From the NCBI GenBank assembly GCA_043754515.1, contig JAYUUO010000028.1, positions 1 through 18,396 on the forward strand: DNA of 18,396 nt. Reading direction: 5' to 3'. This stretch comes from Armatimonadota bacterium (GTDB lineage Bacteria; Armatimonadota; Armatimonadia; Armatimonadales; Armatimonadaceae). Shown in pieces: positions 1,604-7,157 of this stretch; the first letter of the stretch is position 1, and every line of letters begins with the position of its first letter. The notes under the pieces are model-generated. The model was not told where the DNA came from and did no database searches. It worked only from the letters and a program-made list of their open reading frames with translations. Both the position numbers and the translations under genes were made by a program.

Positions 1604-1807
1604 TAAAAGGATAGTTAGCCGCCCTTCTCCCCTTCTCCTTGTCTCGGGAACGACTGCGCGTTCGTATAGCCCCCAATCGAGAGCCGGGGCGATGTTCTCG
1701 TTCCCCTCACGTTTGGCTCACGCGGGGCATATACGCTGTGCGTGATCTTGAAACATCGCTCTAGCCGCCCCGGACTGCCGAGACGGCGCGAAGGGAATCT
1801 ATACATC

Positions 1808-4243
1808 GTGACGCAACCTAAACTCCCTGTCCTCCTCGCCGTTGCGGGGGTTGCCTGCCTGATCGCAACGCCGCCCGCAAATGCGTGGAAGCCCGTAACC
1901 CACGCTTATCTCGCGCAACTCGCGCTCGACGATGCCCTCGACAATGGGGGCAAGGTGACCATCTACGCCGTGGACTACGCCTCCGGGCAGATCCTCAAGG
2001 ACGCCAGTGGCAAGAAGAAGGTCATTGGGACATATCAGTGCGATAATGGTCTGCTCGCCGCCATCCGCCAGAACCGCCGTCAATACATGGCGGGCGTCTG
2101 CGGCCCCGACGCGTTCCCCGACATCGCCACCGGCCAACTCCTCATCCACCCGGCGGGCGGCGACGGCAACTACGGGGGGAAAGTGAATGATCGCGATGTG
2201 GATCTGCACGGCCCCGGCCCCGACCCGTGGATGCGCTTCCTGTACGATCAATCGTTCAAAGGAGGCAAGTACACCACCGACGCGAACAAGGCGTTCACGA
2301 TGGGGTTCCTCGCGCACGCGGCGGGCGACATGTTCGCGCACACCTATATCAATAACTACGCGGGCGGTGAGTTCAACTTCCACTACACCGAGAATGGACA
2401 GCCGCGCCTTTCCGGGAACGCCGTGCGTCACTTCATTATGGAGGGCTACATCGGCGAGCGGACGCCGGAGTTCCGGTACCGCGACGACTACAACATCTCG
2501 CTCGACAACGGCGTTTCGTCGTTCGTATACGACACGATGGTCAGAAACGCGCCCGGCAGCATTCTAGCCCAGGCGAACCTGCTCTCCGGCGACGACAAAA
2601 ATAAGTCGCTCCCTTACCTGATGGCATCTCTGCGGCAAACGCTCGACGACCGCATCACCGCGTACTATAAAATGGGGGACGTGGCGCAGAAAGCCTATTC
2701 AGTGTCGCACCCGCTCTGGATCACGTACCAGGAGGGGTGGCGCAGAGATATTGACGAGGGGATGACAGCGTTCCCGGAGTTCAGCCGCACGCTCGCGCAA
2801 CCGATCTTCTTTTTCCCGCGCGACCAGACCGCGAACATGGACGGCAAGGGTGGCGTGAAAGAGATAATCGGTGCCTACTACAGCGACCACCTGCGCTACA
2901 TGCTCGGCGAGCCGCATTGGGTCGCGGCGGCTACCGATATGGTAGCAGCGGTGACGAAAGACGTTCTGGACGCGCTCGGGATCACGTTGCTTCGGGATCT
3001 GATCGCGACGATCAAGAAGGACGCCGCCGACTTCCTGTGCGAGTCGGCGTTCGGAATGAGCTACGACGAGTGCAAGCACTACCTGACCGACCCGACCACG
3101 CTCTTCGACGGCGTTCTGAACAGCGCGGTGCAAAACGGCGCGGCGATCAACCGGGGCGCGATGGACACGCAACTTCACCTCCAGCCGGGCGGCAAGTTCG
3201 GCTACTTCGATGTCGAGCAGTTCCCGGCGGCATACAACACGGTGACGATGATCAAGCTCTCGCTCCTGCCGCCCGGCGAACTGCGGCGGCTGATGACCGA
3301 CCTGAACGGCGGCGAGGCGGTGTCGGTTCCGGCGGATCAGGGCGTCGCCGACAACATCGTGATGGGCTACACCAAGTCACTCGACGCCGCGAACCAATGG
3401 AAGGCGAACGCGCCGCGCATGTTGCTCGCTCGCAACGGCGTCTTCTACCGCAGTATCTTCATGGCGTTCCCCGGCGAGGCACCATACCCGAGCGTCACGA
3501 ATCTGAGCGTCGTGTCGAATCAGGCGAGCGGCGACCCGACATTCACGGCGAGTTTCGGCGTGGATAGAAGCGACCCGTTCGGGACCGAAGTCGGCACGGA
3601 CGCGGTGCTGGACGGCGATAACGTCGCGGTGCCACTGGACGCCGACTTCGTGGCGTTGCCGGGCGGCGCGACAACGGCGACGTTTCGCGGGCAGTTGCCC
3701 GGCGTGACACGCCCGACGGTGCTACACATCATCGCCACGAACGGCAACCGCGCCGAGGCCACGATAACGGTGAACCCCGCGAAGCTCGCGGGCTTGTTTG
3801 TGAACCGGACCGGCGGCTACTCGGGCGGCGGGGCGCAGTACACATACACGCAACCGAAGGACGTCTCCATCGCAGTCGGACTGGACGCGAACGCGCCTCT
3901 GGGCGGCGCGACAGTGACCCTTAATTCGGCGCAACCGAGCCTGCTGCCTGTCCCCGCGAACGTGGTGGTCGGGAACGACACGGCGACCGCGACGTTCAAG
4001 CCGGTGTTCGCCGAAGCCGCGCCGATGGATGCGACGGTAGCAGTGACGGCGACATACAACGGCGTTTCAAAGACGATCACGTTTAAAAAGGGCGGCGGCG
4101 GCGCGAGCATGACGGTGATGACGCAACTGCTACCGGAGTCATACGCGCAATCGGCGCGGATGCGCCCATCGGTCGCCCAGCGTAATCTGCGCGACACGCG
4201 GGGCAACAGCGCGATGACGGGCCTACGCGGGGTTCGGCAGTAG
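1808..4243 (+). CDS. Secreted zinc-dependent phospholipase C / S1-P1 nuclease superfamily protein with C-terminal beta-sandwich repeats
   Basis: Probable GTG start at 1808 after AAGGGA. Signal peptide ends ANA, followed by W-K-P-V-T-H (mature N-terminal Trp and His are zinc ligands in this family). Motifs GPDAFPD, GFLAHAAGDMFAH and RHFIMEG. Two Ig-like repeats with ATATF in the C-terminal ~240 aa. Confidence 0.8.
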   Translation: MTQPKLPVLLAVAGVACLIATPPANAWKPVTHAYLAQLALDDALDNGGKVTIYAVDYASGQILKDASGKKKVIGTYQCDNGLLAAIRQNRRQYMAGVCGPDAFPDIATGQLLIHPAGGDGNYGGKVNDRDVDLHGPGPDPWMRFLYDQSFKGGKYTTDANKAFTMGFLAHAAGDMFAHTYINNYAGGEFNFHYTENGQPRLSGNAVRHFIMEGYIGERTPEFRYRDDYNISLDNGVSSFVYDTMVRNAPGSILAQANLLSGDDKNKSLPYLMASLRQTLDDRITAYYKMGDVAQKAYSVSHPLWITYQEGWRRDIDEGMTAFPEFSRTLAQPIFFFPRDQTANMDGKGGVKEIIGAYYSDHLRYMLGEPHWVAAATDMVAAVTKDVLDALGITLLRDLIATIKKDAADFLCESAFGMSYDECKHYLTDPTTLFDGVLNSAVQNGAAINRGAMDTQLHLQPGGKFGYFDVEQFPAAYNTVTMIKLSLLPPGELRRLMTDLNGGEAVSVPADQGVADNIVMGYTKSLDAANQWKANAPRMLLARNGVFYRSIFMAFPGEAPYPSVTNLSVVSNQASGDPTFTASFGVDRSDPFGTEVGTDAVLDGDNVAVPLDADFVALPGGATTATFRGQLPGVTRPTVLHIIATNGNRAEATITVNPAKLAGLFVNRTGGYSGGGAQYTYTQPKDVSIAVGLDANAPLGGATVTLNSAQPSLLPVPANVVVGNDTATATFKPVFAEAAPMDATVAVTATYNGVSKTITFKKGGGGASMTVMTQLLPESYAQSARMRPSVAQRNLRDTRGNSAMTGLRGVRQ

Positions 4244-4258
4244 GCTTGTTCGCGATCA

Positions 4259-4293
4259 CGCCGGGGCGCGGGTAATGCCCGCGCGCCCCGGCG
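4259..4293. terminator. GC-rich hairpin between convergent genes, probable bidirectional terminator
   Basis: CGCCGGGGCGCGGG-TAATG-CCCGCGCGCCCCGGCG, between the stops at 4243 (+) and 4304 (-). No clear U-tract. Confidence 0.65.
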
Positions 4294-4303
4294 ATAGTTC
4301 TCC

Positions 4304-5764
4304 TTACAACTCGCGCTCGACCTTTACCACGACTCCCTGTATGCACACCCCCTCCGTCACAAGGATAGGCGCGTAAAGCGGGTTCTCACTAGACAGGAAG
4401 CGGTGGTCACCGGTCTCGGTCAGTCGCTTCACTACGGGACCGACCCCAGGTACCATCGCGACCACGATCTGCCCTACCCGCGCCGTCTCCTGGCGGCGAA
4501 CCAATAGCAGGTCGCCCTCCACAATCCCCGCGCCGATCATGCTATCGCCGATAACGCGGAGCAGAAAGTCAGCCCCGGTCGGCGGCGGGATTATCTCACG
4601 TTCCTCCGCATCGCCTTCTTCGGATGAGGATCGGATACCGTCCCCGGCGGCGACAACGCCCAGGATGGGCAGGAACACCGCGCCCGATCCGCCGATGTAC
4701 GCACGTTCCTCTCCCAAGCCGCCGATCCCCGTCAACCGTCGCAGAAGCCGCTCCTCGGGATCGTCCGGTAGCGGCTCGGCCGGAGCCGGTATAGGCTCGC
4801 TCACTCCCTGACCGGTGTAGTACTTGCGATTGAAGGCGTACACGGTCTTTTTCGGTCGGTTACCAGCCTGTAACATGCCGAACCCGGTAAGTTCCGCGCT
4901 GATCTGGTCGCACTTCGCGATCAGGATCGCCTCGGCGGTCATGGGGCGAACCGGGCTACCGAATTCGAGATCGTCGTGATGGGCCAGGATCGCATGCATG
5001 AGGGCCCGGCTCATTTCGCCCGGCATCCCATATTCTTTACACAACCATGTCAGATGGTTCGCACCGATGAAGATATGACCGAGCATATCCCCCGAGTTTG
5101 TGTATTCCCCCTGCTTCCAGACACATTGCTCTATCTCCCAAAGTTTGCCGAAGTCGTGTAGCAGCGCGGCGGTCACGAGCAGATCAGGATCCAGCAGTCC
5201 CGGATGCTGAACTATCTCGCGCACCGCGCTGTTCGCTACCTGAATAGAGTGACAGAGTAGTCCACCCCGGTAGGCGTGGTGTTTCTTTTTCGCGGCGGTC
5301 GCGTCAAGATACGCCTTTCGAAATTTCCCGTCAGAGCCGACCGTTTCGTCCAGAAGGCGCGCCAGGTTCGGCTGGCGCACCAACCCGATCAGACGGTCGA
5401 GGTTGCGCACCCAACCCGCGTGCTCCGGAGGGAGCGGCTTGACGAAAAAATCTTCGTTAGGCAGACCGTCTCCGAATGGATTCACCCCATCCACGGTTAC
5501 CTCCCCGCCGTATTTGCTTTCGCCCGGCGTCACCAGGCCAGAGATGCGCATCACAGGCGGACAGGATTCCCCGATTTCGCACACCAGCGACGCTTGCTCA
5601 GCGGACGGAGTCCACATCTTCGCCATGCGCGCCCCCGTCCGGTCGTAGACCTCCATCGTCAACTTCGGCCGCGTCGGATGGTTCGGGTCGTACGACACGT
5701 CCCGGATCGCCACCGGCTCATCCGTCACCCGCCCGCCGTTCGCGCCCCAATCAATAATCGCCAT
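4304..5764 (-). CDS. YhaM-like OB-fold + HD 3'-5' exonuclease fused to a LexA/UmuD-type S24 self-cleaving peptidase domain
   Basis: OB fold: KLTMEVYDRTGARMAKMW. YhaM motifs: AAKKKHHAYRGGLLCHS, AALLHDFGK, GHIFIG, HAILAHH-x-x-LEFGSPVRPMTAEA and D286. S24: LPILGVVAAG (A373-G374), LRVIGDSM (S408), VVKRL (K446), SENPLYAPI, IQGVVV. RBS GGGGAGGGGAAAGGGG upstream. Confidence 0.9.
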   Translation of the reverse strand: MAIIDWGANGGRVTDEPVAIRDVSYDPNHPTRPKLTMEVYDRTGARMAKMWTPSAEQASLVCEIGESCPPVMRISGLVTPGESKYGGEVTVDGVNPFGDGLPNEDFFVKPLPPEHAGWVRNLDRLIGLVRQPNLARLLDETVGSDGKFRKAYLDATAAKKKHHAYRGGLLCHSIQVANSAVREIVQHPGLLDPDLLVTAALLHDFGKLWEIEQCVWKQGEYTNSGDMLGHIFIGANHLTWLCKEYGMPGEMSRALMHAILAHHDDLEFGSPVRPMTAEAILIAKCDQISAELTGFGMLQAGNRPKKTVYAFNRKYYTGQGVSEPIPAPAEPLPDDPEERLLRRLTGIGGLGEERAYIGGSGAVFLPILGVVAAGDGIRSSSEEGDAEEREIIPPPTGADFLLRVIGDSMIGAGIVEGDLLLVRRQETARVGQIVVAMVPGVGPVVKRLTETGDHRFLSSENPLYAPILVTEGVCIQGVVVKVEREL

Positions 5765-5788
5765 CTGTAAACCCCTTTCCCCTCCCCG

Positions 5789-6100
5789 TTATGCGTCGCA
5801 CCGGCGCAGGTGGCGGATGTACTTCGGGTTGCGGTACGTGGTGACGAGCACGCCGTCCCCGGCGACCACAACCACGGTGCCGTCCGTCTTCCGCACCGTC
5901 TCATCGCTCCAGGCGGTGCCCATTTGGCGTTGCGCCCGCGCCAACTGCTTACGCCCCAGGAAGAAAACGCGGTCGTCGCCCTGGTAGAAGCACTGCCCCC
6001 AGCGCAAAGCGAGCGCGATCCGATCATCGGGAATCAGCCGTTGACGCTGACGCTCCGTGAAATGGCCCGTTTTGATCCCAACCGGTGTCGAAGTGTACAT
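5789..6100 (-). CDS. Small basic DUF4258-like (RelE/BrnT-type fold) protein, putative ribonuclease toxin
   Basis: GHFTERQRQRLIPDDRIALALRWG matches the H-x-x-x-R-x-x-Q-R-x-I...G N-terminal pattern. The C-terminus VVVVAGDGVLVTTYR is typical. G/A-rich RBS upstream; 24-nt gap to the next gene. Confidence 0.7.
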   Translation of the reverse strand: MYTSTPVGIKTGHFTERQRQRLIPDDRIALALRWGQCFYQGDDRVFFLGRKQLARAQRQMGTAWSDETVRKTDGTVVVVAGDGVLVTTYRNPKYIRHLRRCDA

Positions 6101-6206
6101 GCTTTTTCCCCCCGCGAGTTCGTGCTAAAGGAGCAGTCACGGGGCGCGGCGGGCAACCGGTAAAAACGGGCTGGGATATTTTTGGGGGCGGCTGTCTCGC
6201 GGGAGG

Positions 6207-7157
6207 TTAGAGTGTGGCCAGTCGTACCAGAGGCAGGAGGCGCGCGACGTCGGCGGGGAGCAGGACGCCGGACGTCAGCGACAGGGCGTTCGCGGCGGCG
6301 CAGGCGGTGCCGTATACCGCTGCGTCGGGCACGGACTTGCCCTGCTCGACCAGCGCGTAGAGCGCGCCCGCCGCGAGCGAGTCGCCCGAGCCGATGGGGT
6401 TCACGACGTCCACGGCGGGCGAACCGATGCGCCAGCGGACGGGCGATTCGCGCCCCCCGAGTAGCGAGCCGTCCTTGCCCAACGATACTAATGCCCACTC
6501 GGCACCCGCCTCCAGCAGGGCGTTTACGGCGACCCGCGCGTCGGCGAGCGGGTCACCCGACAGCGCGAAGCCCAGCGTCGCCGCCGCCTCCTCGCGGTTC
6601 GGCTTTACCAGAAAGGGCTGCTCTGCTAGCGCGGCACGGAGCGGCCCTTTCTGCGCGTCCACCAGCACATGGACGCCGCGATCCCGCCCGCGCGCCACGA
6701 ACTCCGCGTAGAAATCATCCGGTGCGCCCGGCGTCAGCGACCCGCTACACGCGATGGCGCGGGCATGCGGTAGATGCGTGTCGGCGGCGCGACGAATGCT
6801 CGTCAGCACCGCTTCGGAGAGCGGCTTAGCCTCCTCAACCAGCTCCGTGGTCGGGGTGCCGTCCGCGAACAGGAGCGTGGAGCAGGTGCGCGTCGCCGCG
6901 TGTTCGCCCGCGTCTATCGCGTCGCCGTAAACCCCCTCGCGGGCGAGTTCGCCCGCGACGTATCGCCCGGAGTCGCCGCCAACCGGATGGATGAGGCGGG
7001 CGTTCGCGCCGAGCGTGGTCAGGACCCGCGCGACATTAACCACCTTCCCGGACGCCGTCACCACGGCCTCGAAGGCGCGGTTGACGCCGCCGAGTTGGAA
7101 GCAGGCGAAGCGCAGGGTGCGCTGGACAGTGGGGGTTAAGCCGACGCAGAGTATCAT
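6207..7157 (-). CDS. PfkB-family hexose-phosphate kinase (1-phosphofructokinase / LacC-like)
   Basis: Probable start MILCVGLTPTVQRTL (ATG 7157). Motifs SGKVVNVAR, CSGSL, VLVDAQ, LVKPNREEA, VSLGKDG and NPIGSGDSLAAG (PfkB signature). Confidence 0.9.
   Translation of the reverse strand: MILCVGLTPTVQRTLRFACFQLGGVNRAFEAVVTASGKVVNVARVLTTLGANARLIHPVGGDSGRYVAGELAREGVYGDAIDAGEHAATRTCSTLLFADGTPTTELVEEAKPLSEAVLTSIRRAADTHLPHARAIACSGSLTPGAPDDFYAEFVARGRDRGVHVLVDAQKGPLRAALAEQPFLVKPNREEAAATLGFALSGDPLADARVAVNALLEAGAEWALVSLGKDGSLLGGRESPVRWRIGSPAVDVVNPIGSGDSLAAGALYALVEQGKSVPDAAVYGTACAAANALSLTSGVLLPADVARLLPLVRLATL

Follow-up and report, generated by a model that had tools for sequence, protein, structure and literature searches.

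A YhaM-type exonuclease joined to a LexA-type autopeptidase in Armatimonadota, and its possible control by RecA

The locus and its fusion protein

The window, by which we mean the whole stretch of 18,396 nucleotides analysed here, carries on its minus strand a gene for a 486-aa protein that is confirmed to consist of a complete YhaM enzyme, with its OB fold and its HD nuclease, followed, after a flexible linker, by an S24 domain of the LexA type (Table 1). A small DUF4258-like gene lies just upstream and is probably co-transcribed with it. Elsewhere in the window, a gene at positions 1742-4243 (+) converges on the fusion gene; its product, 833 aa long and probably secreted, weakly matches zinc phospholipase C (E 0.0014). 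At the contig end (17015-18145, minus strand), genes of the Imm11-like and CPCC cysteine-rich kinds point to a stretch of polymorphic-toxin immunity.

Table 1. Features of the fusion gene and of its upstream neighbour in the window
Feature	Position	Strand	Description or basis
DUF4258-like gene, 103 aa	5789..6100	-	24 bp before the fusion start; TM 0.79 to a DUF4258 cluster; no Pfam match
YhaM-S24 fusion gene	4304..5764	-	486 aa, 52.7 kDa; predicted products of 40.7 kDa (residues 1-373) and 12.0 kDa
OB fold, residues 1-104, with W51 and Y85	5453..5764	-	AF2 model, fold matches, alignment
YhaM HD nuclease core, residues 109-323	4796..5440	-	metal ligands H172, H203, D204, H262, H263, D286
Pro/acidic linker, residues 324-361	4682..4795	-	low model confidence, poorly conserved, variable length
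LexA-type S24 domain, residues 362-486	4307..4681	-	Pfam, LexA alignment, fold match
Predicted scissile bond A373-G374	4643..4648	-	alignment to LexA, conservation
S408 nucleophile	4541..4543	-	conserved in 84/84
K446 general base	4427..4429	-	conserved in 82/84

Pfam finds both halves above its cut-offs, with HD at residues 171-290 (E 1.8e-12) and Peptidase_S24 at residues 366-480 (E 8.6e-23), and neither LexA_DNA_bind nor any HTH family is among the five matches obtained at E<=0.1. The full S24 domain without a winged HTH, as described in an earlier note made from the sequence alone, is thus upheld. This note had also assigned H172, H203, D204, D286, A373, G374, S408 and K446 to their right positions, with the right spacings of 35 and 38 residues; its complete YhaM module is indeed complete, but reaches about residue 323, rather than 317, by alignment with B. 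subtilis YhaM (9h3f).

The AF2 model of the protein, built from a 28-row alignment, has a mean pLDDT of 86, with low values only at residues 321-334, 348-359 and 379-383. In this model, residues 109-323 match residues 103-314 of B. subtilis YhaM (9h3f; Z 27.9, rmsd 2.2, 209 aligned, 29% identity), residues 364-486 match the C-terminal fragment of LexA (1jhc; Z 14.9) and residues 1-104 match the OB folds of PolC, RecG and RPA (Z 9.6-9.8); Foldseek agrees with this three-part assignment. The OB family PF01336 itself is found in 17 of 28 distant fusions and not in the window protein. The six metal ligands of Table 1 align with those of B. subtilis YhaM (as listed in PMC12107432), and W51 and Y85 correspond to its W51 and Y76, the two positions being aromatic in 81/84 and 79/84, respectively, of the fusions described below. 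On the S24 side, the HMMER alignment to E. coli LexA pairs L365-P366...A373-G374 with L76-P77...A84-G85, and the predicted cut would leave a Val-Ala-Ala C-terminus on the nuclease fragment. A predicted complex between the nuclease (1-320) and the tail (335-486) scored 0.01, which is evidence neither way.

The NCBIfam models all recognise parts of the protein and all score it below their cut-offs. The YhaM equivalog PRK13480 matches residues 31-296 (E 7.7e-29) with 100.7 bits against the 460 required, the fusion being 486 aa long vs about 314 aa for the equivalog. LexA (TIGR00498) is matched over profile positions 80-201 only, with 83.2 bits for a cut-off of 110.95. UmuD reaches 56.8 bits for a cut-off of 110; 361 residues precede the S24 domain, and umuC is not among the flanking genes scanned with Pfam.

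The host genome is a metagenome-derived assembly of 5.13 Mb in 313 contigs, which leaves room for the view that the fusion is a misassembly, or else a recent chance fusion with a vestigial tail. We consider this extremely improbable. The linker region, where misassembly had been feared, is bridged by single contigs from two other, independent studies (X5, 4359-5002; X6, 4483-4823); it has no cover in a third non-source run (X10), and a fourth run, possibly the source itself, spans everything. Misassembly is rejected on the strength of these contigs and of 84 distinct, conserved fusions with pairwise identities down to 25%, and two ESM Atlas clusters with the HD+S24 combination speak against it as well.

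Conservation, distribution and phylogeny of the family

The family was assembled from 100 records carrying both domains, from which 6 N-terminally partial ones and 10 duplicates were removed, so that 84 distinct full-length fusions were left, window protein included. Their pairwise identity ranges from 25 to 99%, with a median of 34%. Across this set, H172, H203, D204, H230, H262, D286 and S408 are invariant (84/84), H263 is kept in 78, K446 in 82 and the Ala-Gly pair A373-G374 in 81, while a typical S24 column is far looser, with a median top-residue count of 43/84. The linker varies about twofold, the distance from D286 to A373 being 63-128 aa. The architecture put forward in the earlier note is therefore real and conserved, with the catalytic dyad and the scissile bond under strong constraint, and both halves are intact, co-inherited and under constraint. 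The two ESM Atlas clusters have 51 and 61 members, and Armatimonadota is their commonest taxon.

The exceptions are informative. Ala-Gly is lost in P0138, and it is lost together with a Lys-to-Arg change in L128 and P0131; because the two changes coincide there, the cleavage site and the general base appear to act as one unit. All three of these fusions keep the nine His/Asp nuclease positions checked, although the nucleases of L128 and P0131 share just 70% identity, and all three sit on long branches of the S24 tree.

Among the 150 profile matches listed, with whole-profile coverage, the fusion is found in at least 28 of 401 genomes of the phylum (29 genes); 394 weaker matches lie beyond these 150. 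Still among the matches listed, 22 of the 53 genomes of the window's order have the fusion, 7 have a tail-less YhaM and 24 lack both; one genus has the fusion in 6 of 18 genomes, several of its non-carriers being near-complete, and six further carriers are spread over three other families. No second YhaM was found in the window's genome, which has a LexA of the ordinary kind besides the fusion, as well as RecA and ClpX (clpX above cut-off); across the order, S24 matches above cut-off are present in 61/61 genomes.

In the nuclease tree (FastTree, 145 rows, with outgroups that are matches to the fusion profile and not a full sample), all 83 fusion rows fall in one clade with a support of 100. 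The same clade holds eight tail-less YhaMs, nested at four places and keeping the same nine His/Asp residues, and monophyly of the fusions alone is rejected (67 rows, p-AU 4.5e-5). On the simplest reading of this tree, the tail was gained once and then lost at least four times. The same subclades come out of the S24 tree (130 columns), but it does not join them into one fusion clade (3 changes), would still be compatible with a single origin and names no donor for the tail; nor was an adjacent lexA-like gene, as a source of the fusion, found within 3 kb of 20 tail-less YhaMs. The window protein groups with genome G374, from another family, and with genome G242, apart from its two congeners (p-AU 0.001, for a grouping chosen after the first tree was seen). 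Since it stands apart from these congeners, and since the two that were checked have different genes after pfkB, the fusion is an accessory, patchy gene that has probably moved horizontally.

Beyond the genomes of the phylum, the 45 loci from viral contigs were all HD-only, with 0 fusions, and a metagenome scan gave 12 loci with S24-only matches and no fusion. A pattern scan of genome contigs yielded no fusion among the best 80 of 600 stretches, which is uninformative on range, and longer proteins searched with the S24 part gave 0/426 scoring candidates, which is weak evidence. Within the searches made, the family is confined to a little-studied phylum, in which it is accessory. A prophage location was rejected, as the viral contigs contained no fusion and the window genes scanned included no phage family. 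One tail-less YhaM of the fusion clade does lie in a prophage-like stretch with an HTH repressor and an NrS-1-type primase domain (L199:352-8000, genome G053). Tail-less YhaMs of five other families (L149, L151, L152, L154, L163) adjoin an ECF sigma factor gene, accompanied in L149 and L151 by a LonB-like protease.

Expression signals and genomic neighbourhood

Within the 150 bp upstream of 8 of 28 related fusion loci, an SOS-box-like site of the Gram-positive type can be found (GAAC-N4-GTTC, <=1 mismatch). Dinucleotide shuffles gave a mean of 1.9 loci with a box and reached 8 in 0/100 cases, and tail-less YhaM loci had it in 0/25. These figures have to be read with the number of tests in mind: three patterns and a matrix were tried with three window sizes, of which only the <=1-mismatch consensus and the matrix mean were clear of the shuffles, and an initial run of the matrix, with the threshold set to 10 bits, was not significant (2/28 loci vs 0.94 in shuffles). 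The eight box-bearing loci represent about five independent lineages. At the window locus itself, no SOS box was found upstream of either the fusion or the DUF4258-like gene, whether with the consensus or with a matrix from the order's lexA promoters, and no sigma-70 promoter-like site was found in 4100-6400. The idea that the fusion is a post-translational SOS output rather than a transcriptional one was thus drawn too sharply for the related loci, even though it agrees with the boxless locus studied here. Upstream of lexA in the window's family, CAAAC-N4-GTTTG-like palindromes recur (L164-L193; L188 in its own genome) and resemble a variant Gram-positive SOS box. Genomes of the sister family f2 have two to three full LexA-like paralogues each.

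The neighbours of the fusion vary from locus to locus, so that a conserved operon was rejected. Around the 28 other fusion loci, all 140 genes called by a simple script at distances of up to 3 kb (102 + 38) were compared with Pfam. Seven of these loci have a defence gene: BrxC; BrxL with a CBASS cyclase; BamHI-, ScaI- and Eco57I-type enzymes; and HsdR_N twice. At 18 tail-less YhaM loci outside the clade (71/72 genes scanned), none had BREX, CBASS or restriction genes; an AbiEii-like ATPase was present at one and a PD-(D/E)XK nuclease at two. We read these neighbours as a tendency of the fusion to land in islands and not as proof of defence, considering that kin are non-independent and that several contigs are short. 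No defence gene is present among the window genes scanned, and PADLOC 2.0 (2023 library; 25 chosen proteins) returned weak Cas3-HD matches (E 3e-8, 1e-7) and nothing for the upstream gene. The link to phage made in the earlier note would draw on a minority of neighbourhoods (7/28) and not on the window, which has no such neighbour among the genes scanned.

Near 4 of the 28 other fusions there is a DUF4258-like homologue, as there is, in one genus, directly upstream of tail-less members. The gene is directly upstream in G242 and at three tail-less loci of genus g6, and a few kb away in G386, G371 and G184 (loci L116:4319-4594; L119:689-961; L122, L123; L107-L109, L140, L141). Another recurring set is a three-gene cluster beside 4/28 fusion loci from three families, made of a sigma-70/ECF-like gene, an unknown gene of 218-251 aa and a UvrD helicase of 1160-1201 aa (L112:4878-9944, L119:1081-5983, L136:727-5700, L137:1638-6521), in which the UvrD genes carry IrrE/M78 in three cases and PD-(D/E)XK in three. 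In genus g13, the fusion is followed immediately downstream by one macrodomain gene or two in four genomes (L118, L120, L121, L125), two of which also have an HsdR_N-domain gene.

A probable RecA-sensing tail and its known relatives

S24 domains dock onto the RecA-ssDNA filament, in its groove, and cut their own Ala-Gly bond. Going by its sequence, the fusion very probably cleaves itself and, if it does, RecA would probably stimulate the reaction. In E. coli, F203 of RecA enters a LexA pocket made of V79, V82, F111, L113, V146 and V153 (bioRxiv 10.1101/2023.10.30.564768). The window protein keeps hydrophobic residues at five of these six positions (L368, V371, F400, L402, V435), the V153 equivalent being P443, and the host RecA retains its L2-loop Phe. 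A second contact is formed in E. coli by LexA D150-E152, which face the basic K232/R243/K245 of RecA (PMC9926225). The corresponding loop is devoid of Asp/Glu in the window protein and altogether in 27 of 51 members of its subclade (window protein included), in 1 of 33 other fusions and in 0 of 70 LexAs. RecA stimulation thus seems likely for the family and, owing to this loop, somewhat less sure for the window member.

The loss of the acidic patch, together with the precedent of IrvR, a RecA-independent LexA-like protein (PMC7101444), would suit a tail that cleaves itself constitutively, or on another cue, and simply sets the half-life of the enzyme. We regard such a RecA-independent timer as improbable. 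Five of the six hydrophobic F203-pocket positions are retained, one or more acidic residues remain in the patch in 32/33 fusions from the other subclades, and the cleavage-site loop of the window's subclade is more acidic (a mean of 5.4 Asp/Glu vs 2.9-3.2 in LexAs) and may compensate for what the patch has lost; single charged contacts, moreover, matter little in E. coli (bioRxiv 10.1101/2023.10.30.564768).

Enzymes of the YhaM family are Mn2+-dependent hexameric rings that trim 3' ends of single-stranded DNA and RNA. The reading that we favour, with a probability of roughly 0.43, is that the tail senses RecA filaments and ends this activity, through cleavage and removal by ClpXP. The full-length protein would be an active nuclease. 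When RecA polymerises on ssDNA, be it after damage or on DNA that comes in with a plasmid, a phage or transformation, the attached tail would be cleaved at A373-G374, exposing ...VAA-COOH; ClpXP would then remove the ...VAA-ended nuclease fragment, 3' ends would be handed from trimming to recombination, and the enzyme would re-accumulate only once the filaments are gone. The degradation signal of E. coli LexA is a terminal Val-Ala-Ala, and the nuclease fragment would end in xAA in 80 of the 84 fusions, a conservation that is no independent evidence for a degron, since the geometry of the cleavage site also demands xAA. In LexA, IrvR and HdiR, cleavage exposes a C-degron and ClpXP removes the N-terminal fragment (PMC7101444 and PMC10584840). 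The YhaM structure paper describes 3' exonuclease rings that prefer ssDNA and postulates a release factor, yet to be identified, by which the ring is brought to a halt (PMC12107432).

As between ending the activity and starting it, we lean towards the former. The uncleaved enzyme looks active, because the three fusions without Ala-Gly keep their nine His/Asp residues even with L128 and P0131 diverged to 70%. The free enzyme, for its part, seems tolerated, in view of the intact tail-less descendants and of the phylum's other YhaMs, which are tail-less too, so that no restraining cap would be needed. Enzymes with a permanent cap and enzymes with none thus both seem to work and to be tolerated, contrary to what would be expected if the cap restrained a lethal nuclease. 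The variable linker, the five retained F203-pocket positions, the host L2 Phe and the presence of clpX in the host were also counted in favour of shutdown. The earlier note had left open whether cleavage activates, relocalises or destroys the nuclease; destruction fits better, and release from an inhibitory cap fits less well, given that capped and tail-less relatives keep their active sites. Against shutdown, the SOS-box-like sites upstream of 8/28 loci and the LexA control of B. subtilis yhaM suggest that the enzyme is of use in the SOS state, and activation would explain this no less simply; the window protein has no Asp/Glu in its RecA-contact loop and a Pro at the V153 equivalent, and a yhaM deletion in B. 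subtilis is not damage-sensitive (PMC12107432). SOS induction would nevertheless be compatible with shutdown as well, if the enzyme is made during SOS and survives only after the RecA filaments have vanished.

The logic of umuD is that of SOS induction plus cleavage. By analogy, dimerising S24 tails could cross-link YhaM or hold it poorly active, and RecA-stimulated cleavage would set an active nuclease free under SOS or upon infection, where it might act as a defence effector. This is less likely on balance, but a serious rival, and it accounts for a good part of the context: the SOS-box-like sites at 8/28 fusion loci against 0/25 tail-less ones, the presence of defence genes no more than 3 kb away at 7/28 fusion loci, compared with 0/18 YhaM loci outside the clade, and the cluster of sigma-like, unknown and UvrD-PD-(D/E)XK genes, mostly with IrrE, beside 4/28. 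B. subtilis yhaM is, in addition, controlled by LexA, and its overproduction condenses the chromosome (PMC12107432). However, the active sites of uncleavable variants are intact, and the tail has been lost on at least four occasions; the boxes come down to about five lineages, were found with several patterns and window sizes, and are absent from the window locus; 21 of the 28 loci, like the window, have no defence gene within 3 kb; and the viral loci (0 fusions in 45) and the weak Cas3-HD hits of PADLOC do not speak for a defence effector. The S24 domain could also serve mainly to dock the nuclease on RecA-coated ssDNA, or to dimerise it, with cleavage merely releasing it and changing its activity little. 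The three fusions that keep an S24 shell without a cleavage site would agree with such a targeting or assembly module, but the complete cleavage apparatus of 81/84 fusions makes it a doubtful explanation, and the three exceptions, on their long S24 branches, may be remnants of tails that are being lost.

Returning to shutdown by RecA-triggered cleavage, it can be placed in a broader proposal, to which we give somewhat less than even odds: LexA-type tails would be a portable post-translational SOS module carried on DNA-processing enzymes, of which this family would be the cleanest case, a YhaM ring trimming ssDNA until RecA loads, then cutting its own tail and being destroyed (or unleashed), as a single-chain "release factor" and an SOS output that bypasses transcription. 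If true, this would widen what the RecA filament controls directly, in a small single-chain system, and would give a concrete answer to what stops a YhaM ring from destroying incoming ssDNA, a question raised in PMC12107432. Natural controls exist in the uncleavable, tail-less and acid-patch-less relatives, and a RecA-gated degradation or activation tag could serve as an engineering part.

The enzyme-autopeptidase fusion is conserved and apparently undescribed. In line with the earlier note, which did not recognise it as a characterised protein, a full-text literature search, whose coverage left out most subscription papers, found no description of it and no paper joining YhaM with peptidase S24, and public databases hold it under automatic names only. 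With YhaM/Cbf1 (9h3f, PMC12107432; Cbf1/YhaM entry 9o7t), it shares the OB and HD domains, the H...HD...HH...D ligands, the OB aromatics and the whole-chain fold. It differs in its extension of about 165 aa with a complete S24 domain, its score below the equivalog cut-off and its accessory, patchy occurrence; the coupling of B. subtilis YhaM to SOS (PMC12107432) goes through LexA repression of the gene and not through the protein. Characterised S24 proteins are mostly repressors (PMC7101444). Like LexA, lambda CI, IrvR and HdiR (PF00717), the fusion has a C-terminal Ser-Lys domain, an Ala-Gly 35 residues before the Ser, five of the six hydrophobic F203-pocket positions and the xAA end, but its N-terminal partner is an enzyme in place of a DNA-binding domain, an ordinary LexA is encoded separately by the host, and the acidic patch is missing in 27/51 of the window's subclade, this protein among them. 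UmuD is the S24 protein that acts as a polymerase accessory, and the control proposed here for the fusion, that of a DNA-processing activity by RecA-stimulated S24 self-cleavage, resembles that of UmuD and Pol V. In UmuD, what works after cleavage is the S24 fragment, and another protein serves as the catalytic subunit, whereas in the fusion a single chain carries both parts and the enzyme would be its N-terminal product. A second LexA-tailed enzyme is encoded in a cultured organism, Desulfosarcina alkanivorans PL12 (L074:3850-6375), as a UvrD-HSDR_N-S24 protein with intact Ala-Gly, Ser and Lys motifs; its enzyme is unrelated to YhaM, and no characterisation was found for it either. By its sequence, the fusion would work like YhaM and like a LexA-type autopeptidase, yet it belongs neither to the YhaM equivalog nor to LexA or UmuD.
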